A stretch of DNA of 64,000 nt from Candidatus Omnitrophota bacterium (GCA_903843285.1 CAIMPC010000007.1:92730-156729); one strand, 5' to 3'; shown: positions 6,104-23,993, counted from the stretch's first letter. Program-made: numbers and translations. The notes: a model not told the origin generated them from the sequence alone.

Positions 6104-6118
6104 GGGATCTTAAGTATA

Positions 6119-6637: not shown

Positions 6638-6643
6638 CCTGAA

Positions 6644-7195
6644 GTGAAGAGTGCGGCGATATTGATATTTGTATTAACACCGTTGATCGGGCTAAAGATA
6701 GACGCGCTGGTCCAGATCTTCAGCTGCCGCTCTAATCCCGGGGTTGGATTACTGAGATCTATCTATCTGGGTTTTTTTGCGGGTCTCTGCGGCCTTGCTA
6801 TGATCGATATCGCGTATTTGGTCTTCGCTCCGCAACTATTTAGGGATCTCACTCTTTCCAGTATCTCAAACATGATCATTTACTTTGCGCTCGGCTACGC
6901 CTATTTTCATTTTGTCGGCCTGGGTGAGACCGCGCGCAGGATCAGGATGCTGATAGAGATATATGGTTCTAAGAACAGCCTATCCCTGGAGGAGATATTA
7001 CAGCGCTATAATGCCACCGAGATAGTGAAGAAGAGGGTGGGGCGTCTCGTTGCCAATGGGCAGCTGATATGCAGAGATGGGAGATATTTTATCGGTAAGC
7101 CCGTCGTATTGTTCATTGCGCGCAGCGTTATATTGATCAAATATATATTTCTCGGCAAAGGAAGCGAATTCGATAAGGGACCGATTAATGGCTAA
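6644..7195 (+). CDS. small membrane protein (paralog of 6119-6637): about 3 TM helices plus a C-terminal winged-helix-like domain
   Basis: GTG start. Hydrophobic N-terminus. C-terminal SLSLEEILQRY...GQLICRDGRYFIGKP parallels the preceding ORF. Confidence 0.4.
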   Translation: MKSAAILIFVLTPLIGLKIDALVQIFSCRSNPGVGLLRSIYLGFFAGLCGLAMIDIAYLVFAPQLFRDLTLSSISNMIIYFALGYAYFHFVGLGETARRIRMLIEIYGSKNSLSLEEILQRYNATEIVKKRVGRLVANGQLICRDGRYFIGKPVVLFIARSVILIKYIFLGKGSEFDKGPING

Positions 7196-9278: not shown

Positions 9279-11060
9279 GTGGAGCATATCACAGGGATTG
9301 TTAAAAAAAATAAGTTTATATTTTCAATGCTGGTGCTGTCATTTTTATGCTGGGGAAGACTTTTATTCCTGAGAGGCATATGGGTGGATGACTGGGCTTG
9401 GATATGGCACTATTTCAGTACCGGCAGCTTATCCGAATTTATCGCACCACTATCGAGTCTGCGTCATCCCTTGGATGGTCTGTTATTTTACGCGAATTTT
9501 AAACTGCTGGATATCATTCCGGCGCAGGCGGATAACATATGGAATATCTGGAAGTTCATATTTTTCATTACTAATCCGATCCTCCTCTATCTGATATTGA
9601 GGGGCTTGATGAAGAACCGCTCCATATTACCGGCAACAATAGCTGCGATCTATTTAACTTCTCCGATCGTCCATAATCTTTGCACGGTCGAGCTTGGCCG
9701 ACGGGTTTATATCTTCGCCTTCCTTGTTTCGATATTGCTATCGATGCTGTCAGTGCGTAAGAGCGGTATCAGGATAACATATTATATATCGGCGGCGATC
9801 CTTTCGGTAATTTCCATTTGCGGCATCGAGAGTTTCTTCTTCTTTGAGCTTGCCCGACCGGCTCTTATATTTTATTTGTTTAATAAAGACCGGAGAGACA
9901 GTTCTCTGAAAAATACCGGTAAAACCGTGATATATTGCATGCCTTTTTTTATTTTAGGGTCATTTATATTATTGTTTAATATGGGAGTCATAAGACCGCG
10001 TTCAGGTGTCTATGCCGATGCTTACACTCTATATCATGTGTCACTGGGCAAGTACCTGATGATCGTTATTAAAGCATATGCTGTGTCTATCGTCCGGTTA
10101 TTTGAGTTTAATTTTCATTTGTTCTTCAATAAGTCCATCCTCGCCAAGGACTATATTTATATATCGTTCACAGCCTTACTGTCAGCGATACTTATGATTT
10201 TTACACTCTTCAGGATCGATAACTCTAAGATAAGCCGTGAAGACCATAGCGATATCGCGATGGAGGCCAGGTCCTGGGTTATCATCGGGGCCATTCTTAC
10301 CATTCTGGGGCTGTTCCCTTACATGGTAGTGCGCGGAGCCTTGTCATTCGGCATCGGAAGCAAGCACGCGATCTTGGCTAGTATTGGTTTTTCAATATTT
10401 TTAGCATCAGCTCTTCTTTGGCTCTATCACAGCGTTCATATAAGAAAGGCTTTCTATTATATTCTATTCGCGGGGGTAATATTTCTCGGCGTCTTTAACT
10501 GCAACGTCGCCGTTAAGGCGTATAGTGATGACTGGCAGCAGCAAAAAGCTTTTTGGGCCGGGTTCGTCAAAAAGGTTCCAGAAATAAAGAAGAACACGTA
10601 TCTTATCGTTGATATGCCGCGCAATGAGCATATGTTTTTAGGCGAGTGGCGGGGTACTTTTGAATTCTCGGCGCCGCTAAACCTGATTTACGCCGCCTCA
10701 AGAAGTAAAGATGACGTGAATAGTCATTTTGCGGATACCTTCGAAGATGCCATGAATGCCGGCTCTGAGCAATCGTACGTAAATATTAGAGATAAGGCAG
10801 AGATCGAGTTTGAGTCGTACAAAGGAATACAGAAGCTGTATCCAAGAAATCTGATAATGGCGTCTTATCATGACGGACGATTATACCTTAATGATGAAAT
10901 TGAAAATTCCGGGCTGGGCGCTGAGGCTTGCGATGCGGCAGCTCATGCGTCGAAAGATCAGATAATTTACGGAAACAGAGCGGCCAGTCATCCGCTGCGA
11001 AGGATAATGGGATTTGAAGATAAAGATTTTCAGCCGATTAAACAGGTGATGAACAAGTAA
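9279..11060 (+). CDS. polytopic integral membrane protein (possible glycan polymerase or GT-C-fold transferase)
   Basis: More than 10 hydrophobic segments. GTG start with AAAGGA RBS. No diagnostic motif recognised. Confidence 0.4.
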   Translation: MEHITGIVKKNKFIFSMLVLSFLCWGRLLFLRGIWVDDWAWIWHYFSTGSLSEFIAPLSSLRHPLDGLLFYANFKLLDIIPAQADNIWNIWKFIFFITNPILLYLILRGLMKNRSILPATIAAIYLTSPIVHNLCTVELGRRVYIFAFLVSILLSMLSVRKSGIRITYYISAAILSVISICGIESFFFFELARPALIFYLFNKDRRDSSLKNTGKTVIYCMPFFILGSFILLFNMGVIRPRSGVYADAYTLYHVSLGKYLMIVIKAYAVSIVRLFEFNFHLFFNKSILAKDYIYISFTALLSAILMIFTLFRIDNSKISREDHSDIAMEARSWVIIGAILTILGLFPYMVVRGALSFGIGSKHAILASIGFSIFLASALLWLYHSVHIRKAFYYILFAGVIFLGVFNCNVAVKAYSDDWQQQKAFWAGFVKKVPEIKKNTYLIVDMPRNEHMFLGEWRGTFEFSAPLNLIYAASRSKDDVNSHFADTFEDAMNAGSEQSYVNIRDKAEIEFESYKGIQKLYPRNLIMASYHDGRLYLNDEIENSGLGAEACDAAAHASKDQIIYGNRAASHPLRRIMGFEDKDFQPIKQVMNK

Positions 11061-11074: not shown

Positions 11075-12199
11075 ATGTATAAAACAGACATTGTGATAAT
11101 AGGGGCCGGCGTTATCGGATTGGCTGTCGCGAATGAACTTAGCGATCTGTCTAAAGATATAGTTGTTCTGGAAAAGAACGATAGTTTTGGCCGTGAGACA
11201 AGCTCCAGGAATAGCGAAGTCATTCATGGCGGGATATATTATATGCCCGGCAGCCTTAAAGCCTTAATGTGCGTACGGGGCAGGGAGCTCTTGTATGAAT
11301 TCTGCGCGAATAACAAAGTGCCTAATAAGAAGACGGGTAAGCTTATAGTCGCTACAGAGAAGGAGGAGGTCGGCTCGATTGCATCACTCTTCAGCAATGC
11401 GCGTCAGAACGGGGTTAAGGGCTTGAGGATCATCGGCCGGGAAGAGATCAGTGTTATGGAACCGGAGGTTCGCGGAATAGAGGCGCTGTATTCCCCTGAA
11501 ACGGGGATAGTCGATTCCCATAGTCTCATGCAGCGGCTGCTGGACAGGGCTAAAGCTAAAGGCGTTTCGGTGGTTTTTGAATCCGAGGTCACGGCTATAA
11601 GAAAAGACAAAGATATTTATAACGTTACGGTAAAGGGCGGGAATGAGACGACGGCCTTATCGGCAAGGGTCGTGGTCAATTGCGCCGGCCTCGATTCAGA
11701 CCTGGTAGCCGCTATGACGGGGCTCGATATAAAAGAACGTAAATATGAGCTGCAATACTGTAAGGGGCAGTATTTTCGTCTTAATAGAAAGAAGGCCGGG
11801 CGCGTAAAGATGTTAGTGTATCCCGTGCCAAATCCGGTATCCGGCGGGCTTGGTATACACGCCACCCCTGACCTTGCCGGAGGACTCCGATTAGGCCCCG
11901 ACCATGAAAAGATGAAGGGGCGTATTAAGGATTATTCAGTGGATGAGTCGAGAAAGAAGGATTTCTGCGCATCTGTCAGCAAGTTCCTGCCTTTCATTGA
12001 AGAAAGAGATGTCTTTACCGATACAGCAGGAATAAGGCCCGAATTACGCGATGACGCAAACGGCTATCGCGATTTTATCGTAAAGGAAGAGGCCCCGGCC
12101 GGACTTCCCGGATTTATCAATATGGTAGGGATAGAATCTCCGGGGCTGACTGCTTCACTGGCGATGGCCGAGCATGTGAGAAAGCTTGTCAGGCTGTAA
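11075..12199 (+). CDS. FAD-dependent oxidoreductase (L-2-hydroxyglutarate oxidase / GlpA-like family)
   Basis: N-terminal DIVIIGAGVIGLAVA dinucleotide-binding motif and SSRNSEVIHGGIYY motif typical of LhgO-like enzymes. Confidence 0.7.
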   Translation: MYKTDIVIIGAGVIGLAVANELSDLSKDIVVLEKNDSFGRETSSRNSEVIHGGIYYMPGSLKALMCVRGRELLYEFCANNKVPNKKTGKLIVATEKEEVGSIASLFSNARQNGVKGLRIIGREEISVMEPEVRGIEALYSPETGIVDSHSLMQRLLDRAKAKGVSVVFESEVTAIRKDKDIYNVTVKGGNETTALSARVVVNCAGLDSDLVAAMTGLDIKERKYELQYCKGQYFRLNRKKAGRVKMLVYPVPNPVSGGLGIHATPDLAGGLRLGPDHEKMKGRIKDYSVDESRKKDFCASVSKFLPFIEERDVFTDTAGIRPELRDDANGYRDFIVKEEAPAGLPGFINMVGIESPGLTASLAMAEHVRKLVRL

Positions 12200-12236
12200 A
12201 TCGTTTTGACTATAGACATAGTTAGTCGCGGCAGTG

Positions 12237-12242
12237 TATAAT
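12237..12242 (+). promoter_or_regulatory. TATAAT -10-like hexamer in a 101-bp intergenic gap (no convincing -35)
   Basis: gtgTATAAT sits 58 nt upstream of ATG 12301. A TTGACT lies 25 nt upstream, which is too far for a canonical -35. Confidence 0.25.
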
Positions 12243-12300
12243 TTATGATTGCGCTGGTTTACATCCGGCACAGGTAATTTAATTAACCGGAGCATGATTT

Positions 12301-13836
12301 ATGGCTGAACATAAGAGCGTTATCCTGATATATCCGAAAACCGGTATGGATTTCGGATCGACTGTCGCCCCGCCCCATTCGCTATTGACTATTGCTGCTC
12401 CATTGCACAGCGAAGGCTATCGAGTAAAGATAATAGATCAAAGAGTGGACAGAGACTGGAATAAACATCTGGCCGATGAGCTGATGCTTGACCCTATATG
12501 TATCGGGATATCCTCTATGACTGGTATGCATATACATTTTGCTGTTGAAGCGGCCAGGATCGTCAGGTCATTAACCAAGAATCGCGCGGTGCCTATTGTG
12601 TGGGGAGGCCCGCATCCGTCCATATTGCCGGAGCAGACACTTAATAGCGATTACGTGGATATAGTATGTGTCGGTGAAGGGGATATCACATTTAATGAAC
12701 TTGTAAAGGTCCTCGAGAAAGGTGGGGACCTGTCGGGAGTAAAGGGAATTGCGTTTAAGGATGGCAATAAAGCAGTAGTGAATTCTCCTGCTCCATTGAT
12801 CGACGTGGAAAAGCTACTGCCCGTACCATGGGAACTGATCGACGTGGAAAAGTATATTCATCCGGATATGTATCTTAAAGAAAGCTCCCGAACTTTAGAT
12901 ATAGGGCAGACGAGCAGGGGTTGCCCTTTCAGCTGCGGTTTCTGCTGCAGCGCCAGCCTGAGAATGAGGAAATGGCGCGCGATGTCAGTAGAGCGAAGCC
13001 TGCAGGCGATCGTGGATCCGATCAGGAGATTTAAGCTTAACGGTATCTGGATAAGGGATGACGAGTTCTATATTGACAGAGAAAGAGCTTCACGGATATG
13101 CGAGGGGATAATAAGAGAGAAGCTAAGCATAAGCTGGTATACATCAGGAACGAGAGTCGATGTATTTAATAAGGCATCCGATGAGCAGACGTCCCTGCTA
13201 AAGAAGAGCGGCGCGTACGTTCTGAAATATGGGGCCGAATCCGGCTCAGACAGGATCCTTAAGATGATAGAGAAGGGCATAAAAGTCGAAGATACTATCA
13301 GGGCCAACCTTAAGGCAAAGAAACATGGCATAACTCCGGCTTTTTCTTTGATGATAGGCTTTCCCACTCAGACGTTCGAAGAGATAGATGCTACCATTGA
13401 GCTTATGTTCAGGCTTAAGAGAGATAACCCCAGCGCGCAATTTGAGGCCATAGCGACCTATACCGCATTGCCGGGAACCCCGATGTACGATCTGGCTCTT
13501 AAGAACGGTTTGAAACCGCCTGATAGTTTGGAGGGATGGATTAACTGGAATTTTATCGATTATGACCTGGAGGGAGAGAGGATCCCGTGGTTCGATCTTG
13601 ATGCAAGAAGAAAGATAGGGAATATATGCTATTTAAGCATCCTGGCTAACGGGTTTCGCAATGCCATTGACAGCATAGAGAATGTGCTATTAAGGATGGT
13701 GGCGAAAGCATTTTATACGCCCATTAGTCTGTTTTATCGTCTCAGGCTTGAGCGAAAATGGTATAATTTTTCATGGGATCTCATGATCATAAGATTCATA
13801 AGGGCGAAACTTTTCTACAAGGGTTATTCCAAATAA
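12301..13836 (+). CDS. cobalamin-binding (class B) radical SAM protein
   Basis: B12-domain motif WGGPHPS. SRGCPFSCGFC radical SAM motif. Paralog of 47596 and 54824. Confidence 0.8.
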   Translation: MAEHKSVILIYPKTGMDFGSTVAPPHSLLTIAAPLHSEGYRVKIIDQRVDRDWNKHLADELMLDPICIGISSMTGMHIHFAVEAARIVRSLTKNRAVPIVWGGPHPSILPEQTLNSDYVDIVCVGEGDITFNELVKVLEKGGDLSGVKGIAFKDGNKAVVNSPAPLIDVEKLLPVPWELIDVEKYIHPDMYLKESSRTLDIGQTSRGCPFSCGFCCSASLRMRKWRAMSVERSLQAIVDPIRRFKLNGIWIRDDEFYIDRERASRICEGIIREKLSISWYTSGTRVDVFNKASDEQTSLLKKSGAYVLKYGAESGSDRILKMIEKGIKVEDTIRANLKAKKHGITPAFSLMIGFPTQTFEEIDATIELMFRLKRDNPSAQFEAIATYTALPGTPMYDLALKNGLKPPDSLEGWINWNFIDYDLEGERIPWFDLDARRKIGNICYLSILANGFRNAIDSIENVLLRMVAKAFYTPISLFYRLRLERKWYNFSWDLMIIRFIRAKLFYKGYSK

Positions 13837-13837
13837 G

Positions 13838-14809
13838 ATGAATGCCATATCTAAAGACGTATCGATCGAGCTCTACAATATTATGATGCGGATCAGGCTG
13901 GTGGAGCTTAAGATCGAGGAACTATATGCGCAAGATGAGATGAGGACGCCGATTCATCTGTGTGTAGGACAGGAGGCGATAGCAGCCGGAGTATGCGCAA
14001 ATCTAAATAAGGCAGACTATGTATTCAGTAATCATAGAGGACATGGCCACTACATAGCAAAGGGCGGCGATCTGAGAGCTATGGTCGCGGAGCTCTACTG
14101 TAAGGAGACGGGGTGTTCAAGGGGCAGGGGCGGATCGATGCACCTAATCGATACGTCGGTAGGCTTCATGGGATGCTCTTCGATAGTAGGCGGCAGCATA
14201 CCGATAGCGACAGGCGCGGCCCTGAACTCACTTCTGTGCAAGGATGGCAGGGTGTCAGTAGTCTTCTTCGGTGATGCGGCCTCCGAAGAAGGCGTTCTGT
14301 TCGAAAGTATGAACTTCGCAGCCTTAAAAAATTTACCCATCGTCTATATCTGCGAAAATAATTTTTACTCTGTTTGCTCTCACCAAACCGCCAGACAGGC
14401 AAACTGCGACATATCAATGAGGCCAAAAGCTTTCGATATATCTTCCTGTAAAGTCGACGGCTCGGAAGTCATGGAAGTATATGCAGAGTCAAAAAAGGCC
14501 ATCGATAAAGCGCGATCCGGCAAGGGTCCGTCTTTTTTAGAATGCCGCGCATATCGCTGGAGGGGCCACGTGGGTCCCGGGGATCCGCAGAAGGATTCCT
14601 ATAGAGAGCAGAAAGAATGGGTAGAATGGATGAAGAAAGACCCTCTTAAGAAGTTTGAGGACTCTTTAACGAAAAGCGATATTTTGGATGACGCGTGCAT
14701 AAAAAATATCAGATGTAAGATCGATGAGGATATTTCAGAAGCTTTTGAATTTGCCAAAAATTCCCCATTGCCGGACAGAAGAGAGCTTGAAAAATATCTA
14801 TATGGTTAA
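13838..14809 (+). CDS. thiamine-diphosphate-dependent dehydrogenase E1 alpha subunit-like protein (pyruvate/acetoin dehydrogenase E1 alpha family)
   Basis: NHRGHGHYIAKGGDL...GCSRGRGGSMHL motifs of E1 alpha. Confidence 0.75.
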   Translation: MNAISKDVSIELYNIMMRIRLVELKIEELYAQDEMRTPIHLCVGQEAIAAGVCANLNKADYVFSNHRGHGHYIAKGGDLRAMVAELYCKETGCSRGRGGSMHLIDTSVGFMGCSSIVGGSIPIATGAALNSLLCKDGRVSVVFFGDAASEEGVLFESMNFAALKNLPIVYICENNFYSVCSHQTARQANCDISMRPKAFDISSCKVDGSEVMEVYAESKKAIDKARSGKGPSFLECRAYRWRGHVGPGDPQKDSYREQKEWVEWMKKDPLKKFEDSLTKSDILDDACIKNIRCKIDEDISEAFEFAKNSPLPDRRELEKYLYG

Positions 14810-14814
14810 ATAAT

Positions 14815-15858
14815 ATGCCCTGGACAAAATTTATCATTGAAAAACAAGAACCGGGCTACGATGAGCACGCAGGTGGATCCGATCGGAAATTGACCGTACC
14901 TGAGGCCATAAGAGAGACGCTGGACCGGGCGCTTGCGATAGATAAGCAAGTCTTCGTAATGGGTCAGGGAGTTGACGATCCTTCGGGCATGTTCGGGATG
15001 ACGCTGGGCCTTCAGGAGAAATATGGTAAGGAGAGAGTATTTGATACGCCTTTGTCAGAGAATGCGCTGACGGGTATAGGCGTGGGGGCGGCTCTTACCG
15101 GGTCCAAACCCGTGTATTTTCATAACAGGCCTGACTTTCTGCTTTTAGCGATGGATCAGATCGTCAACCATGCAGCCAAATATAGTTACATGTTCGGAGG
15201 TAGAGTAAGGATCCCGTTAGTAATAGTCGCGATAATAGGGAGAGGGTGGGGTTCCGCCGCGCAGCATTCGCAGTCTCTGCACGGGTTATTTATGCACATA
15301 CCTGGCTTGCGCCTCGTCATGCCCAGCACGGCATACGACGCGAAAGGGTTATTGGCCGCCAGCATTGCTGATGGGAACCCGGTCATCTTTATTGAGCATC
15401 GCTGGCTGTTTAAACACAGGAGTTATGTTCCTGAGGAGCTGTATACGATCCCACTGGGAAAGGGCCTGGTGCGCCGTAAAGGAAAAGATGTGACGATAGT
15501 AGGTATATCCTATATGGTGATAGAGGCATTGAGGGCGGCGGAGGAGCTTAAAGGTGAGGGGTTTGATGCGGAGATTATCGATCCCAGGACGCTGAGGCCG
15601 CTTGATGAAGAGATTATCCTTGAATCAGTAAAGAAGACCGGGCATCTCGTGATAGCCGATACGGACTGGAAGACCGGCGGTGCTGCATCCGAGATCGCCT
15701 CGATGGTAGCGCAAAAGGGTTTTAAATATCTTAAGGCACCGGTAAAGATAGTAGCCTGGCCGGATGTGCCGGTTCCGGGTAGCTATGTCCTGGAAGAGGC
15801 TTTTTACCCGGGTAAAGACGATATTATAAGATTAGTAAAGGATCTGGTAAATATATGA
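14815..15858 (+). CDS. E1 beta subunit-like protein (transketolase-like Pyr and C-terminal domains)
   Basis: FVMGQGVDDPSGMFGMTLGL...ENALTGIGVGAALTG motifs. C-terminal transketolase_C-like segment. Confidence 0.75.
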   Translation: MPWTKFIIEKQEPGYDEHAGGSDRKLTVPEAIRETLDRALAIDKQVFVMGQGVDDPSGMFGMTLGLQEKYGKERVFDTPLSENALTGIGVGAALTGSKPVYFHNRPDFLLLAMDQIVNHAAKYSYMFGGRVRIPLVIVAIIGRGWGSAAQHSQSLHGLFMHIPGLRLVMPSTAYDAKGLLAASIADGNPVIFIEHRWLFKHRSYVPEELYTIPLGKGLVRRKGKDVTIVGISYMVIEALRAAEELKGEGFDAEIIDPRTLRPLDEEIILESVKKTGHLVIADTDWKTGGAASEIASMVAQKGFKYLKAPVKIVAWPDVPVPGSYVLEEAFYPGKDDIIRLVKDLVNI

Positions 15859-16787
15859 AGATATTAGTTACTGGGGCGGCAGGATACATAGGGTCTGTTT
15901 TGGTTCCCGAATTGTTGAAAGAGGGATTTCAGGTCATCGCGTTAGATAATTTCATGTATAATCAGGCGTCATTACTGGATTGCTGTAATAATAAGAATCT
16001 GACCATAATCCGCGCAGATGTGCGGGACAAGGGAGTGGTTTCTAGATGTTTGAAAGATGCCGATGTCATCATCCCGTTAGCATGCTTTACAGGAGCTCCT
16101 CTTTGCCAGATCAATCCATTCGAAGCTAAGAGTGTGATTTTGGACGCGATAAAGATGATGCTGGATCTGCGCAGTAAAGAACAGATCATCATATATCCCA
16201 CCACAAATAGCGGTTATGGGATAGGCCAGAAGGGAATATACTGTACCGAAAAGACTCCTTTAAAACCCGTATCTCTGTATGGTAAGCTGAAGGTTGAGGC
16301 TGAGAAGGCTCTGCTGGATGTGGGCAACTGCGTTACTTTAAGGCTCGCTACGGCATTTGGGATCAGCCCGAGGATGAGGCTGGACCTCCTGGTAAATGAC
16401 TTCACCTATCGCGCCGTAAACGATCGGTTCTTAGTGCTCTTCGAAGCTCATGCAAAGAGAAATTATATACACGTCCGCGATGTAGCGAAGGCCTTTATTC
16501 ACTGCCTGAATAAGTTCGATCGGATGAAGGATGAGCCGTATAATGTCGGTTTAAGCGATGCCAATCTCAGTAAATGGGAGCTGTGCGAAAAGATCAGGGA
16601 ACAGGTCCCTGACTTCTATTTCATAGAGGCGAATATCGGGGAGGATCCGGATAAGAGGGACTATATCGTCAGCAACCAAAAGATAGAGAAGACCGGATTC
16701 AGTACGAGCATGTCAATGCATGAAGGTATTCTGGAACTGATAAAGGGATATAAGATCATCAGAAGGAACCAATATTCCAATGTCTAA
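15855..16787 (+). CDS. NAD-dependent epimerase/dehydratase (extended SDR)
   Basis: ILVTGAAGYIGS Rossmann motif and YGKLK (YxxxK) catalytic motif. Confidence 0.75.
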   Translation: MKILVTGAAGYIGSVLVPELLKEGFQVIALDNFMYNQASLLDCCNNKNLTIIRADVRDKGVVSRCLKDADVIIPLACFTGAPLCQINPFEAKSVILDAIKMMLDLRSKEQIIIYPTTNSGYGIGQKGIYCTEKTPLKPVSLYGKLKVEAEKALLDVGNCVTLRLATAFGISPRMRLDLLVNDFTYRAVNDRFLVLFEAHAKRNYIHVRDVAKAFIHCLNKFDRMKDEPYNVGLSDANLSKWELCEKIREQVPDFYFIEANIGEDPDKRDYIVSNQKIEKTGFSTSMSMHEGILELIKGYKIIRRNQYSNV

Positions 16788-17532
16788 TATAAATATGGCA
16801 GATAAAGTAACCCTGATAATCCCTACGCTGAATGAGATAGATGGCGTGCGCGTTATCATGCCGAGGATAAAACCCGAATGGTACGATCAACTTATAGCCC
16901 TTGACGGCGGTTCGACCGACGGGACTGTCGAGTATCTGAGGGAGCGTGGTTATGAAGTCGCTTTTCAAAAAGCTGTAGGGTTAAGGAAAGCGTTCATTGA
17001 AAATTATAAGAACGTCAAAGGCGATATAATGATCACCTTCAGCCCCGACGGTAACTCTGTCCCGGAATTAATACCCGCGCTAATTGCCAAGATCAGAGAG
17101 GGCTATGACATGGTCATAGTCTCCAGATATCTGGATGGTGCCAAAAGTTACGATGATACTTTTATTAGCGGATTGGCAAACAAATTCTTCAAAAAAACCA
17201 TCGGCTTACTTTTCGGGTATAAGTACACGGACGCGCTAGTCATATATAGGGCGTACAGGAGAGAGATAGTGGATGAGCTGGGCATCCTTAAGCCGCGATC
17301 CGACTTCTATGAAAAGCACATAGGAAGATATGTAAGCTGGGAGCCTCAATTATCTATCCGCTGCGCAAAGAGAAGATTAAAGATCGCCGAGATCCCGGGA
17401 GACGAGCCTAAAAGAATAGAAGACGAGAGCAAGGTGGGACTGCGGATGCTGCCATCCAGCAGGATAAGACATTTCAGGGTCGGCTTTGCGTGTATAGCCC
17501 TGATCGTAGATGAGTTCTTCAGATTTCGTTAA
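16780..17532 (+). CDS. glycosyltransferase family 2
   Basis: VTLIIPTLNE...ALDGGSTDGT GT2 signature. Confidence 0.7.
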   Translation: MSNINMADKVTLIIPTLNEIDGVRVIMPRIKPEWYDQLIALDGGSTDGTVEYLRERGYEVAFQKAVGLRKAFIENYKNVKGDIMITFSPDGNSVPELIPALIAKIREGYDMVIVSRYLDGAKSYDDTFISGLANKFFKKTIGLLFGYKYTDALVIYRAYRREIVDELGILKPRSDFYEKHIGRYVSWEPQLSIRCAKRRLKIAEIPGDEPKRIEDESKVGLRMLPSSRIRHFRVGFACIALIVDEFFRFR

Positions 17533-17568: not shown

Positions 17569-18576
17569 ATGGTTATAAGCAGAACGCCTTTTCGTATATC
17601 TTTCTTTGGAGGGGGGACGGATTATCCTGTGTGGTATAAAGATAATCGCGGTGCGGTATTGACGGTCTCAATAAACAAGTATTGTTATCTGACCTGCCGT
17701 TATCTTCCGCCGTTTTTTAAGCATAAGTCCCGGATCATCTGGTCTGAAATAGAATACGTGAAAGGCATATCCGAGATTCGTCATCCATCGGCCAGGGAAT
17801 GTTTGCGATTTATGGACATCAAGAAAGGTGTGGAGATACATCATGACGGTGATCTGCCTGCCAGGACTGGAATGGGCTCGAGTTCTTCTTTTACGGTCGG
17901 ATTACTTCATGCGCTTTATGCGTTAAAAGGTATCATGCCCACTAAGAGGCAATTGGCGCTTGATGCCATTCACCTAGAACAGGAAGTGATGAAGGAGAAC
18001 GTCGGCTCCCAGGACCAGGCACAAGCCGCCTTTGGCGGATTTAATCTGATAGAATTTGGCGGAAAGGACCATATTATGGTCAGGCCGATGACCATAAATC
18101 CTGATAGATTGGCGCATTTTCACTCTCACCTGATGCTTTTTTATACGGGTCTTTCCAGGACCGCTTCGGAAATAGCGGCTGAGCAGATAAGATGCACCCC
18201 CTACAAGAAGAAAGAGCTGCATATGATGCATGGATTCGTAAATGACGCCATAGAGATCCTAAATGGTAATTCCCGACTGTCAGAGTTCGGGAAACTGTTG
18301 CATGAAAATTGGCTGATCAAGCGAAGCTTGTCCCATAAGATCTCGACAACCGCTATTGACCGAATGTATTCAACCGCTATAAGGGCGGGCGCCTCAGGGG
18401 GCAAACTTCTTGGTGCCGGCGGCGGAGGATTTATGTTAATATTTGCTAAGCCCGAGAATCAGCATGAGATAAGAGAGAAACTAAAAAAACTTTTATACGT
18501 GCCCTTTCGGTTTGAAGATCTGGGTAGCCAGATAATCTTTTACAGTCCCGGAGACTCTTTAACAAGTCCTGTTTAG
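17569..18576 (+). CDS. GHMP sugar kinase (D-glycero-D-manno-heptose 7-phosphate kinase HddA-like)
   Basis: RISFFGGGTDYP N-terminus, PARTGMGSSSSF GHMP ATP-binding motif, LLGAGGGGFM C-terminal motif. Confidence 0.7.
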   Translation: MVISRTPFRISFFGGGTDYPVWYKDNRGAVLTVSINKYCYLTCRYLPPFFKHKSRIIWSEIEYVKGISEIRHPSARECLRFMDIKKGVEIHHDGDLPARTGMGSSSSFTVGLLHALYALKGIMPTKRQLALDAIHLEQEVMKENVGSQDQAQAAFGGFNLIEFGGKDHIMVRPMTINPDRLAHFHSHLMLFYTGLSRTASEIAAEQIRCTPYKKKELHMMHGFVNDAIEILNGNSRLSEFGKLLHENWLIKRSLSHKISTTAIDRMYSTAIRAGASGGKLLGAGGGGFMLIFAKPENQHEIREKLKKLLYVPFRFEDLGSQIIFYSPGDSLTSPV

Positions 18577-18599: not shown

Positions 18600-19610
18600 A
18601 TGACCGACAAGAGAGATGTTTCACGCGTACTGATAACCGGCATCTACGGTTCAGGCGCCAGTTACCTGGCGGAATACATAGTTCAGAACCATCCGAAGGT
18701 AGAAGTCCATGGGATAGCACGTTGGCATAGCACTGCGCAGATTAAGAATATAGAAGCGATCCGTGATAAGCTGTCGATCCATGAAGCAGATCTTATGGAT
18801 CTCGGTTCCGTCCTAAACGTAATGGAGAGCGTGAAGCCGGACGTTATCTTTCATTTGGCGGCTTACGCAAACGTGAGGGCCTCATTCATCACGCCATATA
18901 GCGTCATGAGCAATAACATCCTTGGGACCGTTAACCTGTTTGATGCTGTCAGGCTGGCAAAACTGGATCCTATGATCCAGCTTTGCAGTACTTCTGAAGT
19001 GTACGGGCAGGTCGATCCAAAAGACGTCCCGATCAAAGAAGGTGCACCGATACGGCCGGTCAATCCGTATTCAGTATCAAAGGCAACCCAGGACCTATTG
19101 GGGTTCAGTTACTTTAAAAGTTACGGTATGCGTATTATCCGCACCCGCATGTTCACGTATATAAATCCCCGCAGAACAGATCTTTTCGCCACATCATTCG
19201 CAAAGCAGATCGCCTGGATCGAGAAAGGCATGCAGAAGGAGCTATTGCACGGCAACCTGGACTCTGTGCGCACGATAGTCGATCCGCGGGACGGAATGCG
19301 AGCATATTGGGACGCGATAATGTTTTGCAAATTCGGTGAAACATATAATATAGGCGGCACGGTCTCTACGACGGTCGGAGAGGTCCTGAAGCGCTTAATA
19401 TCAATGAGTGATCAGGCTATACCGACACGGTTGGATCCCGCCCTTCTGCGTCCGGCGGATGTAACTCTGCAGATACCATGTGTAGATAAATTTGTAAGCC
19501 AGACTGGATGGAAGCCGAGGTACACGATGGAAGAGAGCCTCGAGTATCTTCTTTCTTATTGGCGGAAGGAAGCCGAAAAGGCCGTTAAGATGAGAGAGTT
19601 CGACAGCTAG
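18600..19610 (+). CDS. GDP-sugar 4,6-dehydratase (Gmd / GDP-manno-heptose dehydratase DmhA-like)
   Basis: ITGIYGSGASYLAEY...VHGIARW, STSEVYG, PYSVSKA and NPRRTD align with the ITGITGQDGSYLAE...VHGIKRR, STSELYG, PYAVAKL and NHESPRRG blocks of Gmd. Confidence 0.75.
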   Translation: MTDKRDVSRVLITGIYGSGASYLAEYIVQNHPKVEVHGIARWHSTAQIKNIEAIRDKLSIHEADLMDLGSVLNVMESVKPDVIFHLAAYANVRASFITPYSVMSNNILGTVNLFDAVRLAKLDPMIQLCSTSEVYGQVDPKDVPIKEGAPIRPVNPYSVSKATQDLLGFSYFKSYGMRIIRTRMFTYINPRRTDLFATSFAKQIAWIEKGMQKELLHGNLDSVRTIVDPRDGMRAYWDAIMFCKFGETYNIGGTVSTTVGEVLKRLISMSDQAIPTRLDPALLRPADVTLQIPCVDKFVSQTGWKPRYTMEESLEYLLSYWRKEAEKAVKMREFDS

Positions 19611-20324
19611 ATGAGAAGCGAAAATGATCCCGGCAGGATCGATGCCGTAATCCTCTGCGGAGGTAGAGGCGAACGTCTTAAGCGGATAGTTAAAGATAGG
19701 CCGAAGCCGATGGCCGATATTAACGGACGGCCATTCCTTGACATGGTTATAGATCATTTGTCGGACTACGGCTTTAAGCGGGTGGTATTGTGCCTGGGCT
19801 ACAAGGCCGACGTGATCCGTAAGTATTATTCAGGAAGGCACAGCAAAATAGAGATACTTTTTTCTGCGGAAGCATTTCCTCTGGGCACGGCAGGGGCGAT
19901 TAAGAATGCGGAGGCACTGATAGGCAGCGATCCGTTTCTCGTCATGAATGGTGATTCATACTGCTCCATAAATCTGCAGCGTTTCATAGATTTCCATATA
20001 AAAAAGAAGAATGTTCTTTCGATGGCTTTAACCAGATCCGTTGAAAATGAAGATTGCGGCTTTGTTCGTCTGGATCGTTCGCGAAAGATCACCAGTTTTA
20101 ACGAAAAGAATCGCACCGATAAAGATAGATACGTGAATACCGGAATATACTTATTTTCTAAGAAAGCCCTTAAGTTAATACCGCCAGGAAAGAAAATATC
20201 CCTGGAATATGAGGTCATACCAAAAATATTGAACAAAAAAATCTACGGATTCGTAACGGATGAAAGATTGACGGACATAGGCACGCCTGGCAGGTACAGG
20301 AAAGCAAAGATATGTTTTAAATGA
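19611..20324 (+). CDS. sugar-1-phosphate nucleotidyltransferase (heptose-1-phosphate guanylyltransferase HddC-like)
   Basis: AVILCGGRGERLK...KPMADINGRPFL nucleotidyltransferase N-terminal signature. Confidence 0.7.
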   Translation: MRSENDPGRIDAVILCGGRGERLKRIVKDRPKPMADINGRPFLDMVIDHLSDYGFKRVVLCLGYKADVIRKYYSGRHSKIEILFSAEAFPLGTAGAIKNAEALIGSDPFLVMNGDSYCSINLQRFIDFHIKKKNVLSMALTRSVENEDCGFVRLDRSRKITSFNEKNRTDKDRYVNTGIYLFSKKALKLIPPGKKISLEYEVIPKILNKKIYGFVTDERLTDIGTPGRYRKAKICFK

Positions 20325-20364: not shown

Positions 20365-21603
20365 ATGAGCGTGGCTGAAAAGAAGAACGGAAAGCGACCG
20401 GTCACAGTGCCTTTTGGGACTTTGTCGATTAATGGTAAGTCCAGGGCTCTGGTGAATAAGGTTCTCGACTCCAATAGGGTCTCTTGCGGAAAATATGTCA
20501 GAGAGTTCGAGAAGAGGTTTGCCGAGCTGGTCGGTGCTAAAGAAGCAGTTGCGCTAAGCTCAGGCACGGACGCAGACGCGCTTGCCCTGGCGGTGCTATA
20601 CGACTTCGGCGCGCATCGAGGGGACGAGGTCATAGTTCCGGCCCTGTCGTTCGTAGCAACGGGCAACGCGGTGCTGCAAGCCGGTTTTACTTCTGTCTTT
20701 GTCGACATTGAGAGAAATACACTAAATATAGACCCTTTAAAGATCGAAGCGGCGATCACTAATAAGACCAGGGCCCTGATGCCGGTGCACTTGATCGGTA
20801 AACCCGCAGCCATGGACGCGATAAATAGGATAGCTAAAAGGCATAAGCTCATAGTTATCGAAGACGCTGCAGAGGCGCATGGGGCGGAATACAAAGGACG
20901 TAATGCCGGCACGCTCGGTGACATGGCGGCCTTCAGCCTTTATGTGGCGCACATCATAACGTCGATCGAAGGCGGCATAGTCACAACCAACCGCAAAGAT
21001 TATGCGGAGATATTAAGGTCGCTTCGGTCGCATGGCCGGGCATGTAAATGCGATAAGTGCGTGCTCAATACCGCTTCAGCATATTGTGCCAAGAGATTTA
21101 AATACGGATCCAGTAATGATATAAGGTTTGTTTTTGAGCGCATAGGATATTCAAGTAAAATGAACGAATTGGAGGCCGCAATAGGCCTTGGCAACCTGAG
21201 CGACTACCACAGCATATTAGCTCGTAGGAGAAAGAACCTGGGTTATCTTACCGATAAGTTTAAAAGATTCGCTCCTTACTTGCTGACGATCGAGGCTGGT
21301 GCCAAAGAAAAAATAGGGCCGCACGCGTTTCCGGTGATAATCCAGGAGTGTGCTCCGTTCACCAGGGAAGATATGACCGCTTATCTGGAAAAAAATGGCG
21401 TTGAGACGAGAACATTATTTTCGTCTATGCCTACCCAGTGCCCCGGCTACAAATTTTTGGGTTACGAATTGGGTGATTTTCCGAATGCCGAGTATATAGG
21501 CAATAACGGATTTCATATAGGTGTCCATCAGGATCTGAAACAGAGGGAGCTGGATTACTTCCTCAAGTCTGTAGCGGATTTTTTGTCAGATAAAATAAGG
21601 TGA
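20365..21603 (+). CDS. DegT/DnrJ/EryC1 family PLP/PMP enzyme of the 3-dehydratase type (ColD / E1-like)
   Basis: The active-site block SLYVAHIITSIEGG has His where aminotransferases carry the Schiff-base Lys, as in ColD and CDP-4-keto-6-deoxyglucose 3-dehydrase E1. It follows a Gmd-like gene. There is an extra 4-Cys insertion CKCDKC...C. Confidence 0.7.
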   Translation: MSVAEKKNGKRPVTVPFGTLSINGKSRALVNKVLDSNRVSCGKYVREFEKRFAELVGAKEAVALSSGTDADALALAVLYDFGAHRGDEVIVPALSFVATGNAVLQAGFTSVFVDIERNTLNIDPLKIEAAITNKTRALMPVHLIGKPAAMDAINRIAKRHKLIVIEDAAEAHGAEYKGRNAGTLGDMAAFSLYVAHIITSIEGGIVTTNRKDYAEILRSLRSHGRACKCDKCVLNTASAYCAKRFKYGSSNDIRFVFERIGYSSKMNELEAAIGLGNLSDYHSILARRRKNLGYLTDKFKRFAPYLLTIEAGAKEKIGPHAFPVIIQECAPFTREDMTAYLEKNGVETRTLFSSMPTQCPGYKFLGYELGDFPNAEYIGNNGFHIGVHQDLKQRELDYFLKSVADFLSDKIR

Positions 21604-21614: not shown

Positions 21615-23885
21615 ATGGATAGAATCTCTGACAGAGCTGAATCGGTCGGGATCCCGAACCGGATCAAGACAATTTATGTATGCACAGCCGTTCTATTGAT
21701 AAGCGTATTTATAGCCCTGCTTTATCGTCCTATACAAGCCGCGTTTCACGAGCACGATCTCCTATTTATGATGCCTGTCATGTCTTCCATCCCGGCGGGC
21801 CAGTCTTTTTTTGAAAGTATAAAAGTATTTCTTTATAATCCGTACACGATGGTTTTCGGTGACCCATGGATGAATACTTATTTGTCAGTGGTGTTAGCCG
21901 TTTTTGGATTTCAAACAAAGTACTACATTTTTACGTCTATAGCGCTCCACTTTTTATGCGCTCTATTTTTGTATCTTGTCCTACGAATGATAGATTTTGA
22001 TTTCAGAGTTGCCTTTTTTTCGAGCCTCGTGTATTTAACGTTATTTATTCATTTCGGTTATTATTTCTTTCCCATGGCAACCCATCATGTCTTCGTGATC
22101 TTCTTTAGTTTACTGATCATGTACCTTTATTTTAGTACGATGAAAAAAATCGACGAAGATCGTAATTGGAGGTATTTGTTTTGGCTCACGATCTCCGCTA
22201 ACTTCCTGGCGTCTTTTTGCCAGATAACGATCCTTATTTTACCTATCGGCATTCTGTCGCACATTCTAATATCTTCAAATGACGTGGCGGATAGATTAAA
22301 AAAATACGATATCTGGATTCCTTTATTTATAACTTATTTAGGTTACCCTCTCTTGAGAACCGCTTACACGACGTTTCCGCATCTTAAGGTATTTCTTCAT
22401 AGACAAGGTGATGCCCCCGGAGGGCATTCATTGTATTTATTGCTTTTTCTGTCAGGTATCGGTTTGCTTTCTGTTCTTAGATATATTTTAAAGTTGTCCT
22501 GTAAGTATCATTTTGGCAGGATATTGAAGATTCTTTGTGTGTCGGCGATCGTGTCTTATATCGTCGCTTTTATTATCGTATTGGGCAGAAACGATCTGAT
22601 AACGCCGAGCAAGGTAAAATTATTTGATTGGCTGTCCCCGCTTAATATCTTTCGACCCATGGCGGTGATGCTCGAAGATTTTATTTTTCCTATTAAAGCG
22701 GCGTTTTCTACGGATTCAACCGTAATATTCAATGTCATGTCTAGGCATAGTGGCGCCATCGCCTTATCGTCAGCCGTATTTATGTGCGTTATTTTCATGA
22801 AGAAGTTTTTCTTCAGGCACAAAGGCCTTATAGTGATAATGATGTTTTATATCATCGCGCTTCGCTATATGCGAATTGAGACCTCTGTTATCCGGTCGCG
22901 ATATTTTATTTATGTGACGCCTCTGTTCTGTATCGTTTTCTGCTCTTCATTTATGTATATGTACGACCTTATCATTAAAAAGACCAGATTAAAAACGATC
23001 TTTCAGGAGTTCATTTTGGCTCTTATATTTATCGGGCTTTGCATACCGAATATCTTTGCTATAAAGACAGAATTATATAGAAGTAAATTCGTAAATAATT
23101 TTCTTTCGTATGATGATATCAGAGCAGCCTATATTATAAACAACGATATTAATACTTCGGGCTCCATAAGGCTCATTAGTCCGGAAAATATATTTATTGA
23201 GGGTGTTCAGCCCATGCCGTTCATTTTTAACGAGCTTTACACCCTTGAGCTGGAGGACCATTTGAAATATGATCCATTCAGATATGTCTTAGCCCAGACG
23301 CTTGACAATAGATCAGTGCTTCATGTAAGTGTCAATATGGGTAAGCCGGGCGATATGAAAGGAAAATTGTTATTTAATATTAGTGGGCCCAGGATATACG
23401 ATTCAAAAGGCTTAAATATTGACAGATTTAGCTCGTGTTTTGACGATGCTATGCGAGAGCTGAGGCTTGGCGATTACAAAAAGGCCTATGTGCTGTTCAG
23501 GAAAGCCATTGGGATGAGGCCATTTTTGCTGAATTATATATTATCCAAGAACGACTTGAAAGAGCTGAAATGTATTACTGGCGAACGTGACCTAAAAAGC
23601 TGGGTTAAAGTTATAGTGAATTATTATGAGACCACCGGTGGTAATGAAAAGAAAGCGATGAGTAACTCAGCTCTTATTAACGATGAGATAGACGAGTATA
23701 TTAGATGCATTGTTTACGCGGCATATTTAAGCTATATTGCCGGTGAGCGGGAAGAAGGCAATAGGCTCTTGGAGCAGATAAGATACATTGAAAATGACCA
23801 GAATAAGGTACTGGCATTATTGAATAATGAGTCATCAATCCAGTCTGAGCATATCTTACAAGCGTTTTCCTCGAATAGTCCTTAA
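21615..23885 (+). CDS. large polytopic membrane protein with a C-terminal soluble TPR-like region (possible GT-C-fold transferase or polymerase)
   Basis: Many hydrophobic segments in the first roughly 500 aa. C-terminal hydrophilic region with TPR-like repeats. Confidence 0.4.
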   Translation: MDRISDRAESVGIPNRIKTIYVCTAVLLISVFIALLYRPIQAAFHEHDLLFMMPVMSSIPAGQSFFESIKVFLYNPYTMVFGDPWMNTYLSVVLAVFGFQTKYYIFTSIALHFLCALFLYLVLRMIDFDFRVAFFSSLVYLTLFIHFGYYFFPMATHHVFVIFFSLLIMYLYFSTMKKIDEDRNWRYLFWLTISANFLASFCQITILILPIGILSHILISSNDVADRLKKYDIWIPLFITYLGYPLLRTAYTTFPHLKVFLHRQGDAPGGHSLYLLLFLSGIGLLSVLRYILKLSCKYHFGRILKILCVSAIVSYIVAFIIVLGRNDLITPSKVKLFDWLSPLNIFRPMAVMLEDFIFPIKAAFSTDSTVIFNVMSRHSGAIALSSAVFMCVIFMKKFFFRHKGLIVIMMFYIIALRYMRIETSVIRSRYFIYVTPLFCIVFCSSFMYMYDLIIKKTRLKTIFQEFILALIFIGLCIPNIFAIKTELYRSKFVNNFLSYDDIRAAYIINNDINTSGSIRLISPENIFIEGVQPMPFIFNELYTLELEDHLKYDPFRYVLAQTLDNRSVLHVSVNMGKPGDMKGKLLFNISGPRIYDSKGLNIDRFSSCFDDAMRELRLGDYKKAYVLFRKAIGMRPFLLNYILSKNDLKELKCITGERDLKSWVKVIVNYYETTGGNEKKAMSNSALINDEIDEYIRCIVYAAYLSYIAGEREEGNRLLEQIRYIENDQNKVLALLNNESSIQSEHILQAFSSNSP

Positions 23886-23928
23886 CTTGCTTCCCGGCAA
23901 ATATTTGCAGTCAAAAGACATTATTATA

Positions 23929-23957
23929 TTGACAAAGTTATCGGCAGATAGTATTAT
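23929..23957 (+). promoter_or_regulatory. sigma70-like promoter: -35 TTGACA (23929-23934), 17-nt spacer, -10 TATTAT (23952-23957)
   Basis: Read directly from the sequence in the 108-bp gap upstream of the regulator gene. RBS AAGGA lies 7 nt before ATG 23994. Confidence 0.6.
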
Positions 23958-23979: not shown

Positions 23980-23993
23980 AATAAGGATAAATT

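Follow-up and report, generated by a model that had tools for sequence, protein, structure and literature searches.

An E1alpha/E1beta gene pair without E2 and E3 in a glycan locus of Candidatus Omnitrophota: a probable thiamine diphosphate carboligase for branching of GDP-heptose

Why should a gene pair of the pyruvate dehydrogenase (PDH) E1 kind stand among genes for the modification of sugar nucleotides, and what may it do there without the lipoyl-E2 and E3 partners? The question is raised by a 64,000-nucleotide stretch of DNA from Candidatus Omnitrophota bacterium (GCA_903843285.1 CAIMPC010000007.1:92730-156729; “the window” below), in which positions 13,838 to 15,858 encode E1alpha-like and E1beta-like subunits of a thiamine diphosphate (ThDP) enzyme. 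We suggest that the pair is probably an E2-independent ThDP carboligase of the sugar-branching kind known as alphaKADH2, placed within a guanosine diphosphate (GDP)-heptose modification operon of a cell-surface glycan locus. Judged from the gene context, in its most likely reaction a GDP-4-keto-heptose would receive at C4 a C2 unit derived from pyruvate. The two genes are:

13838..14809, + strand: E1alpha-like ThDP-binding subunit (323 aa; PF00676, E = 2.4e-68)
14815..15858, + strand: E1beta-like subunit (347 aa; Transket_pyr, PF02779, and Transketolase_C, PF02780)

Both open reading frames (ORFs) had been proposed in an earlier reading of this DNA made without database searches (the sequence-only reading), and their coordinates are confirmed here together with the motifs quoted for E1alpha, in which NHRGHGHY and GCSRGRGGSMHL are both found. 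The ThDP motif GDA-x25-ENN is intact at residues 145-175 of E1alpha, and the cofactor-activating Glu of PLSEN and the His of AQHSQS in E1beta align with G. stearothermophilus E1beta. The architecture is that of an E1_dh protein with a separate Transket_pyr/Transketolase_C subunit; in the Pfam scan, the pair did not show the YerE-type architecture, i.e. a single-chain flavoprotein with the TPP_enzyme_N, _M, and _C domains. A single base separates the stop of the upstream B12-binding radical S-adenosylmethionine (B12-rSAM) gene at 13836 from the E1alpha ATG at 13838, five bases lie between the E1alpha stop (14809) and the E1beta start (14815), and the E1beta stop overlaps the start of a short-chain dehydrogenase/reductase (SDR) gene in the ATGA at 15855-15858. 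The claimed coupling to the genes on both sides thus stands, while “epimerase” is not the best label for the SDR, since this protein is 57% identical to the C. jejuni C4 dehydrogenase structure 6VO6.

The lack of partners for the pair is supported by two kinds of scan. The Pfam scan, which covered every one of the window’s 58 plus-strand ORFs with a length of 100 aa or more, found no lipoyl, E3-binding, or 2-oxoacid_dh domain, and regular-expression scans of the 64 kb found no match for the E2 motif DHRxxDG or for the E3 disulfide motif, so the absence of E2 and E3, noticed already in the sequence-only reading, extends for 13.8 kb upstream and 48 kb downstream of the pair. A flavin adenine dinucleotide (FAD) protein at 11075-12199 was considered as an E3 and rejected: it has weak Pyr_redox matches, but it is DAO/LhgO-like and without the disulfide motif. 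In addition, E1alpha scores below the cutoffs of TIGR03182, the PDH E1alpha equivalog (330 bits, cutoff 394), and of TIGR03181 (196 bits, cutoff 411). E1beta remains below the equivalog NF008854 (312 bits, cutoff 454) and reaches the NCBIfam subfamily model NF006667 (327 bits, cutoff 321).

To what extent this separation is general was seen in the homologues. A protein search returned hundreds of them at 58-80% identity, the named ones coming from metagenome-assembled genomes of Omnitrophota and Planctomycetota. A scan of species-representative genomes with two peptide patterns gave 80 loci (36-81% identity; L-numbered below), in all of which ORFs were called and searched for the window’s neighbour genes and for E2/E3 motifs; the sampling is biased by the two patterns, some loci are short, and the trees are distance-based. 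E2 directly follows E1beta in all 21 loci classed as E2-linked by motif, and also in the annotated Nitratireductor locus (L088). Where E1alpha is at least ~41% identical to that of the window, E2 is almost never in the locus, and the 21 E2 loci lie almost all at or below ~40%; of the loci with higher similarity, L041 clearly departs from this rule, having both E2 and E3 at 44% identity.

In a neighbour-joining tree of 79 E1alpha sequences, 52 E2-less sequences are split from 27 E2-linked ones with a bootstrap of 97/100, and the subclade holding the window E1alpha has 100/100. The split was recovered at 98/100 (57 vs. 28) in a tree of 85 sequences, to which the Nitratireductor plasmid pair, two Streptomyces plasmid pairs found by tblastn, the plasmid pair of Solidesulfovibrio magneticus RS-1, and the pairs of L083 and L084, which are closely related to that of the window, had been added. 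Each control fell on its expected side: the annotated E2-linked Nitratireductor pair (44.5% identity) on the E2 side, and the two E2-less Streptomyces pairs, from natural-product-type clusters, on the side of the window. The window pair is on the E2-less side in both trees and does not group with the housekeeping E1s, which answers the phylogenetic question that the sequence-only reading had put. According to the motif scan, none of the 55 loci on the E2-less side of the tree has an adjacent E2; ORF clustering gave a probable E2-type protein somewhere in three loci classed as E2-less. The E2-less clade covers glycan loci of more than 10 phyla, with members from Omnitrophota, Planctomycetota, Chloroflexota, Desulfobacterota, Nitrospirota, Cyanobacteria, Bacillota, Bacteroidota, Verrucomicrobiota, Chlamydiota, and Proteobacteria.

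The two sides of the tree also differ in their gene surroundings. An enzyme forming a 4-keto-sugar nucleotide is located within 10 kb in 29 of the 55 E2-less-clade loci, and a heptose-pathway marker in 24 of them, versus none of the 27 E2-linked loci in either case. The neighbours of the pair in the window are:

11075..12199, + strand: FAD oxidoreductase resembling L-2-hydroxyglutarate oxidase (PF01266, E = 4e-67)
12301..13836, + strand: B12-rSAM enzyme, probable C-methyltransferase (511 aa; PF02310 and PF04055)
15855..16787, + strand: Cj1427-type SDR, proposed GDP-heptose C4 dehydrogenase (406 bits, E = 5e-121 to PDB 6VO6)
16780..17532, + strand: family 2 glycosyltransferase (GT2), polyprenyl-phosphate-sugar-transferase-like (PF00535)
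17569..18576, + strand: GHMP sugar kinase, HddA-like (GHMP_kinases_N and _C; NF049969, E = 6e-42, below cutoff)
18600..19610, + strand: GMD-family SDR, putative GDP-sugar 4,6-dehydratase or Rmd-type 4-reductase (336 aa; PF16363, E = 9e-61)
19611..20324, + strand: sugar-1-phosphate nucleotidyltransferase, HddC-like or ManC-like (PF00483; NF049965, E = 7e-46)
20365..21603, + strand: predicted pyridoxamine phosphate (PMP)-dependent sugar 3-dehydratase of the RfbH/ColD type (DegT family, 1e-97)
21615..23885, + strand: polytopic membrane protein, candidate lipid-carrier-dependent glycosyltransferase or polymerase (756 aa, ~9 hydrophobic segments)

The gene most tightly joined to E1beta is the most informative one. 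Its SDR product matched both 6VO6 and 6VO8, the identity of 57% to 6VO6 extending over 308 ungapped residues, and 6VO6 itself shares 96% identity with a 313-aa protein cluster of C. jejuni. This structure is taken to be that of Cj1427, which agrees with the structural study that PMC10680097 cites. Cj1427 oxidises C4 of GDP-heptose in a ping-pong reaction, in which 2-oxoglutarate is reduced to L-2-hydroxyglutarate (PMC10680097). Besides full-length similarity, the window SDR shares with this type the HddA-like and HddC-like genes in the operon; an LhgO-like partner is encoded nearby, and a Cj1427-like SDR adjoins or is near E1beta in at least 13 loci. Given the close resemblance to the C. jejuni GDP-heptose C4 oxidase, the likely role of the SDR is production of the keto acceptor and not epimerisation. 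The 310-aa protein had also been considered as the branch ketoreductase, by analogy with YerF/Pau7, and this candidate was dropped after the 6VO6 match; Pau7 is an aldo-keto reductase.

The chemistry of Cj1427 led to the prediction that the DAO-family protein encoded at 11075-12199 would be LhgO-like, before NCBIfam was consulted, and the test agreed: its top NCBIfam match is NF008726, L-2-hydroxyglutarate oxidase (269 bits, cutoff 299). We propose that this flavoprotein could turn the L-2-hydroxyglutarate left by the Cj1427-type dehydrogenase back into 2-oxoglutarate. Its orthologues are inside the cassette in L002 (4506-5639) and L083 (5083-6246), and lhgO is annotated by the Prokaryotic Genome Annotation Pipeline in the RS-1 cassette (L086, 20380-20960); the LhgO-like flavoprotein travels with the Cj1427-like SDR. 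An L-2-hydroxyglutarate oxidase partner is not among the C. jejuni heptose-pathway enzymes listed in PMC10680097.

The other operon genes fit the same toolkit. The kinase matches the heptose phosphate kinases 4N3O and 3K85 in the PDB, and the nucleotidyltransferase matches 5XHW and 6JQ8 (6-deoxy-D-manno-heptose pathway protein). The GMD-like SDR, with the signature STSEVYG and Y157xxxK161, has 212 bits to 2PK3 (Rmd reductase) and 186 bits to 7US5 (GDP-heptose 4,6-dehydratase). In the DegT-family protein the Lys that binds pyridoxal phosphate is replaced by His (SLYVAH-IITSIEGG), as seen in an alignment of 10 His-type and 18 Lys-type sequences, and the His-type state recurs in the orthologues of L002, L003, L004, L009, and RS-1. 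A conserved CxCx2Cx8C insert at residues 227-241, like the Fe-S motif of RfbH/E1 dehydrase, is absent from aminotransferases, and also from the ColD-like members of L032, L040, L047, and L054. Because of the His replacement, the Cys insert, and the full-length alignment with 3BCX (CDP-4-keto-6-deoxyglucose 3-dehydrase) and ColD (2GMS), this protein is, judged by its sequence, a 3-dehydratase and not an aminotransferase. The C3-dehydratase of C. jejuni HS:5 acts on GDP-4-keto-heptose and its 6-deoxy form (PMC10680097).

The GT2 gene, conserved in L002, L004, L045, L084, and L086, has weak NCBIfam matches to AglJ, ArnC, and dolichyl-phosphate hexose transferase. The 756-aa membrane protein has no Pfam or NCBIfam match; its orthologues (719-795 aa) close the cassette in L002, L083, and L084, and a phospholipid carrier-dependent glycosyltransferase is annotated at this position in RS-1. 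Orthologues of the B12-rSAM enzyme (824-828 bits) lie a few genes 5′ of E1alpha in L002 and L045.

Four recurring glycan contexts, which track the subclades of the tree, were found in the E2-less clade:

Type I: E1alpha - E1beta - 310-aa SDR - GHMP kinase - nucleotidyltransferase - DegT-family protein (the window, L002, L003, L004, L007, L009, L053, L083, L084, and, with another gene order, RS-1 plasmid pDMC1)
Type II: family 9 glycosyltransferase (GT9), radical SAM/SPASM, E1alpha, E1beta, GT2, radical SAM/SPASM, two small membrane proteins
Type III: PglC-like sugar transferase, E1alpha, E1beta, true DegT aminotransferase, PglF-like dehydratase
Type IV: SIS (GmhA-like), 4,6-dehydratase, aminotransferases, methyltransferase, E1alpha, E1beta, Zn-dependent alcohol dehydrogenase, HldE-like bifunctional enzyme

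The order of E1alpha, E1beta, and Cj1427-like SDR, followed by kinase, nucleotidyltransferase, and His-type DegT protein, is conserved in L002, L003, L004, L009, L083, and L084; in L007, it is kept up to the nucleotidyltransferase, with a DegT-family match further 3′. Extra genes, for GT2 and B12-rSAM enzymes and, in the window, the GMD-like SDR, are inserted differently in each core; every Type I cassette has further B12-rSAM paralogues among its genes, and a polytopic membrane protein of 720-795 aa closes most of them. The genes of the window cassette recur in RS-1 in another arrangement, five of them at 47-62% identity. This cultured strain carries its cassette (L086; NC_012797.1, 22514-38996) on the 58.7-kb plasmid pDMC1, flanked by IS66 transposases, in the order GT2, radical SAM, NUDIX, kinase, E1alpha, E1beta, GMER-like SDR, His-type DegT, Cj1427-like SDR, nucleotidyltransferase, lipid-carrier-dependent glycosyltransferase, and lhgO. 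Its E1alpha/E1beta pair has the locus tags DMR_RS21995 and DMR_RS22000.

A variation of Type I concerns the place of the GMD-like SDR, which in L002 (17368-18291), L083 (17350-18273), and L084 (17981-18904) is taken by a 307-aa GDP-fucose-synthase-like SDR. The epimerase Cys and His are kept in it (SSC.YPK, SHV.PAL), and Phe stands for the catalytic Tyr (FAIAK), which the RS-1 homologue retains. Because of this Phe, the 307-aa SDR may epimerise without C4 reduction and leave the ketone for the ThDP enzyme.

These data allow us to propose a sequence of steps, in which the substrates, the order, pyruvate as donor, and every catalytic activity are inferred from gene context. The operon would make GDP-heptose. 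The Cj1427-like SDR, translationally coupled to E1beta, would oxidise C4 with 2-oxoglutarate, to be regenerated by the LhgO-like flavoprotein; alternatively or in addition, the GMD-like enzyme would give a 6-deoxy-4-keto form. The 3-OH would be removed by the His-type DegT enzyme, after which E1alpha/E1beta would convert pyruvate into hydroxyethylidene-ThDP and add it to the C4 ketone, the predicted product being a 4-C-acetyl tertiary-alcohol heptose nucleotide. Tailoring may include methylation by the B12-rSAM enzyme and possibly reduction. Finally, the GT2 enzyme would load the sugar on a lipid carrier, from which the 756-aa membrane protein would hand it to the final acceptor. The context fits branching because enzymes making a 4-keto-sugar nucleotide and removing the 3-OH share the operon with the pair.

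The idea of a carboligase forming a two-carbon branch, put forward in the sequence-only reading, is thereby supported by the tree split, the lack of E2/E3, and the keto-sugar genes of the operon, the function being proposed from context. Apart from the label of the SDR, two of its details can be refined. The pathway probably involves a keto-sugar nucleotide, as the C4 dehydrogenase and 3-dehydratase genes indicate, and it belongs to a cell-surface glycan locus and not to a secondary-metabolite cluster. The acceptor suggested there, a nucleoside diphosphate (NDP)-4-keto-sugar, is retained as a keto-sugar nucleotide; given the HddA/HddC-like and Cj1427-like genes, it is probably a GDP-heptose, not an NDP-deoxyhexose.

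Several points weigh against this interpretation. The pair was likened to AviB1/B2, AlmDI/DII, Plm8/9, and KbDH by gene content and descriptions, not by sequence; a sequence proxy for the alphaKADH2 grouping is that it groups with the E2-less Streptomyces plasmid pairs at 98/100. Both His residues used with lipoyl-E2, alpha His244 and the beta His of HSQS, are kept, so an E2-dependent reaction would be possible on sequence alone. No residues separating E2-less from E2-linked E1alpha were found at strict thresholds; relaxed thresholds gave five moderately discriminating positions (72, 150, 160, 164, and 247), and, all catalytic residues being common to both groups, E1alpha offers no mechanistic discriminator. 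Within the clade, the Type II loci have E1alpha/E1beta without recognisable sugar-nucleotide genes. In the window, no branch ketoreductase could be clearly assigned, and no E3-type reductase was recognised there, though one may be required to judge from the RfbH-like Cys motif. Dehydrogenase, 3-dehydratase, and reductase form a complete 3-deoxyheptose route without E1alpha/E1beta (PMC10680097), which makes the pair an “extra” with an assumed acceptor. Finally, no GmhA/SIS, GmhB, or HldE homologue was found in the 64-kb window, and the lack of GmhA and GmhB leaves a heptose, rather than a hexose, unproven.

A second ThDP system of the window bears on the nature of the transferred unit. It is a split transketolase:

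3992-4837 and 4761/4821-5312, + strand: two transketolase pieces (span 3992-5312)

The C-terminal piece has 163-183 aa and the Pyr domain only. Both pieces are part of a module at 1070-7195 with a radical SAM protein (300 aa), a radical SAM/SPASM protein, GT9, GT2, and two small membrane proteins. The module is syntenic with the Type II loci L016 (7975-15842) and L025 (7882-15686), with 36-53% identity for six proteins, and an E1alpha/E1beta pair occupies there exactly the position of the window’s transketolase. One ThDP family thus seems to have been exchanged for another, non-orthologous one, which hints that the transferred unit may not always be a plain hydroxyethyl. The apparent exchange also supports the earlier claim that this locus has two ThDP systems for the editing of sugar skeletons.

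If the pair is a carboligase, its donor may be other than pyruvate: hydroxypyruvate, 2-oxobutyrate, 2-oxoglutarate, or a hydroxylated longer 2-oxo acid would give a hydroxyacetyl or longer acyl branch by the same chemistry. The presence of E1alpha/E1beta at the transketolase position of an otherwise syntenic Type II module suggests that equivalent units can be delivered by both families, and transketolases deliver dihydroxyethyl. The YerE-type enzyme ErwE takes C4-C8 hydroxy-keto acids and rejects pyruvate (PMC9306805), and 2-oxoglutarate is already the co-substrate of a neighbouring enzyme (PMC10680097). We nevertheless consider another donor unlikely, because the known alphaKADH2 branching enzymes all transfer C2 units and KbDH-alpha/beta takes pyruvate only (PMC12247030), the closest E2-linked relatives are pyruvate-type E1s, and no evident gene for an aldolase or a special keto acid stands beside the pair. 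It is quite unlikely that the pair works off the sugar nucleotide, either by joining pyruvate and an aldose phosphate into an unusual ketose in a DXS-like reaction, with the kinase and nucleotidyltransferase acting afterwards, or by supplying a C2 unit elsewhere, as QncN/QncL-type systems do by loading it on a carrier protein. Every Type I locus has a sugar kinase and a nucleotidyltransferase together with the pair, as would suit a non-standard free sugar, and the Streptomyces plasmid pairs of the E2-less clade stand beside condensation-domain, acyl carrier protein (ACP), or AMP-ligase genes. These linear-plasmid pairs (L085, S. griseofuscus pSGRIFU1, 138162-139142; L087, S. albogriseolus pSALBX2, locus 11944-13860) have as neighbours a condensation-domain protein with ACP and phosphopantetheinyl transferase genes, or cytochrome P450, AMP-ligase, and DrrA-type genes, not sugar genes, so the clade is wider than sugar branching. 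Against such a role of the window pair, its kinase and transferase match HddA/HddC, whose substrate derives from sedoheptulose 7-phosphate, the Pfam scan revealed no ACP, lipoyl, or condensation domain in the window, and the tightest coupling is with the enzyme creating the ketone of the GDP-sugar.

The two remaining explanations are both very improbable. The pair could cleave a C–C bond in the style of an acetoin-cleaving E1, thereby opening or shortening an alpha-hydroxy-ketone sugar intermediate; GDP-4-keto-heptose is such a ketone, and acetoin:DCPIP (2,6-dichlorophenolindophenol) oxidoreductase, from the same superfamily, cleaves alpha-hydroxy ketones (PMC12247030). However, no such cleavage is known for sugar nucleotides, the ThDP-bound fragment would have no encoded acceptor, E2 or other, and the 3-dehydratase takes away the alpha-hydroxyl needed for cleavage on that side. 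The pair could also be an ordinary E1 of a pyruvate, acetoin, or branched-chain 2-oxoacid dehydrogenase with E2/E3 elsewhere in the genome, its glycan setting being incidental. Its overall likeness to PDH E1 is strong: the human and Geobacillus PDH E1 are the top solved-structure matches of the pair (human PDH E1alpha is the best for E1alpha, at 189 bits), the catalytic His residues are kept, the NF006667 cutoff is reached by E1beta, and the window shows 64 kb of a contig of ~189 kb. This explanation is opposed by the position of E1alpha under both equivalog cutoffs, by the tree, which sets the pair apart from the E2-linked ones at 97-98/100, by the location of E2 immediately 3′ in 22 of the 22 E2-linked loci examined, by the tight packing or overlap with sugar-pathway genes on both sides, and by the conservation of the same cassette between phyla.

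Taken beyond the window, the carboligase interpretation may be generalised, and this we put forward tentatively, as a possibility we would not yet favour. E2-independent E1alpha/E1beta pairs may form a large unrecognised clade that is regular in the cell-envelope glycan pathways of more than 10 bacterial phyla, one branch making C-branched heptoses and another being interchangeable with split transketolases. In the heptose branch, the substrate would be GDP-4-keto-heptose made by the Cj1427-type oxidase, with the LhgO-type enzyme recycling the co-substrate.

The rest of the window agrees with a surface-glycan setting: by the Pfam scan it is one plus-strand glycan locus with several GT2 genes, one GT9, an ATP-binding cassette exporter, and a Maf-like MptE domain. 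Its other features are:

7188, 12301, 25603, 32272, 37358, 47596, 54824, 58167, + strand: B12-rSAM genes
1070, 1959, 28181, 42978, + strand: other radical SAM genes
24489-25556 and 38833-39684, + strand: NeuB-type synthases, two nonulosonic-acid synthase systems
31479, 39720, 50991, + strand: three cytidylyltransferases (CMP-transferases)
33704-35277, + strand: HisF/HisH-like pair (imidazole-glycerol-phosphate-synthase-like)
49119-50882, + strand: HMGL-like aldolase domain fused to an MptE/Maf-like domain

With twelve radical SAM genes in 64 kb, of which eight include a B12 domain, the set is unusually dense, which points to numerous C-methylations or other radical reactions on the building blocks of the glycan. 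The NeuB, CMP-transferase, HisF/HisH-like, and Maf-like genes suggest that modified nonulosonic acids are used in protein glycosylation, of the flagellin type or another. Two large polytopic membrane proteins (9279-11060 and 21615-23885) have 9-10 hydrophobic segments and no family match. At the end of the locus (59884-62141), a gene for a GDSL-like protein is followed by one for an MBOAT membrane acyltransferase in an AlgI/AlgJ-like or DltB-like arrangement, which suggests O-acylation of the glycan. The G+C content is 0.38 at 22001-24000 and 58001-62000 versus ~0.45 otherwise.

C-branched tertiary-alcohol sugars are rare among known glycans. If the proposed function is correct, branching of the E1alpha/E1beta type would also occur in surface glycans from a large number of phyla, most of them uncultured; branched heptoses with nine carbons would be expected as a new class, and chiral tertiary alcohols could be made with new ketone-accepting ThDP carboligases. 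If the wider generalisation is true, tertiary-alcohol branched sugars on the surfaces of environmental bacteria are far commoner than the few known structures suggest. These proposals are testable, since GDP-heptose, Cj1427, and the C3-dehydratase are already established in vitro (PMC10680097) and a cultured carrier, RS-1, exists.

How does the window pair compare with known systems? AviB1/B2, Pau11/12 (= Plm8/9), the aldgamycin pair, and KbDH-alpha/beta are of the alphaKADH2, i.e. E1alpha/E1beta, type and attach a pyruvate-derived acetyl branch to keto sugars (PMC4753412, PMC4802897, PMC12247030), so the AviB1/B2 precedent invoked in the sequence-only reading is confirmed by the literature. 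For KbDH-alpha/beta of kibdelomycin, pyruvate was coupled to sugar-like ketones in vitro (PMC12247030), and for AviB1/B2, Plm8/9, and the aldgamycin pair the evidence for branching is genetic (PMC12247030, PMC4802897, PMC4753412). The window pair has in common with those of avilamycin (AviB1/AviB2), paulomycin, aldgamycin, kosinostatin, and kibdelomycin the two-gene E1alpha/E1beta organisation without E2/E3 among keto-sugar-nucleotide genes, and the proposed chemistry is the same, a pyruvate C2 unit and a ring ketone giving a tertiary alcohol. Their setting is that of secondary metabolites, dTDP- or NDP-deoxyhexoses, and Actinomycetota, whereas the window pair belongs to a cell-surface glycan locus of an uncultured organism and is tied to GDP-heptose enzymes and a ketone-making Cj1427-type oxidase.

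With YerE/YerF of yersiniose, ErwE, MMAR_2332, and MygE, the window shares the general logic of nucleotidyltransferase, 4-keto sugar, RfbH-type 3-deoxygenation, and ThDP branching at C4 for a surface polysaccharide (PMC9306805, PMC4753412). YerE/YerF act on CDP-3,6-dideoxy-4-keto-glucose (PMC9306805); YerE, which belongs to the acetolactate-synthase/decarboxylase superfamily, is a flavoprotein made of one chain and uses a CDP-hexose, in contrast to the heteromeric E1alpha/E1beta with its probable GDP-heptose. From the capsular GDP-heptose toolkit of C. jejuni, which includes HddA, HddC, the C4-dehydrogenase Cj1427, a C4,6-dehydratase, the HS:5 C3-dehydratase, and C4-reductases (PMC10680097), homologues of the kinase, guanylyltransferase, C4-dehydrogenase (57% identity), GMD-family enzyme, and PMP-type 3-dehydratase stand in one operon of the window. 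The 20 enzymes listed for C. jejuni include no ThDP enzyme, B12-rSAM enzyme, or L-2-hydroxyglutarate oxidase (PMC10680097), and the window, for its part, showed none of the cupin-type epimerases that C. jejuni has.

The E1s of pyruvate, acetoin, and branched-chain dehydrogenases have the same fold families, ThDP motif, and catalytic Glu/His as the window pair, which differs in having no E2/E3, in its E1alpha being under the equivalog cutoffs, and in belonging to a separate clade. The miharamycin/amipurimycin split transketolases are proposed to follow the logic in which a sugar is oxidised to a ketone and a C2 unit is added (PMC12247030), and the window has a ThDP system of this kind as well; E1alpha/E1beta is a different ThDP family, and the window’s C-terminal transketolase piece is without the transketolase C-terminal domain. 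Split transketolases are proposed for hydroxyacetyl transfer, with 13 candidates, all from Streptomyces and none characterised (PMC12247030). A 2025 review assigns the YerE type to lipopolysaccharide and the E1alpha/E1beta and transketolase types to secondary metabolites only, citing ~120 clusters for E1alpha/E1beta-type branching (PMC12247030), and our literature search found no paper joining heptose pathways with ThDP branching. The proposed chemistry of the window pair is thus of a known kind, while the surface-glycan setting in many phyla, the probable GDP-heptose substrate, and the partnership with a Cj1427-type oxidase and an LhgO-like enzyme distinguish it from the systems described before.

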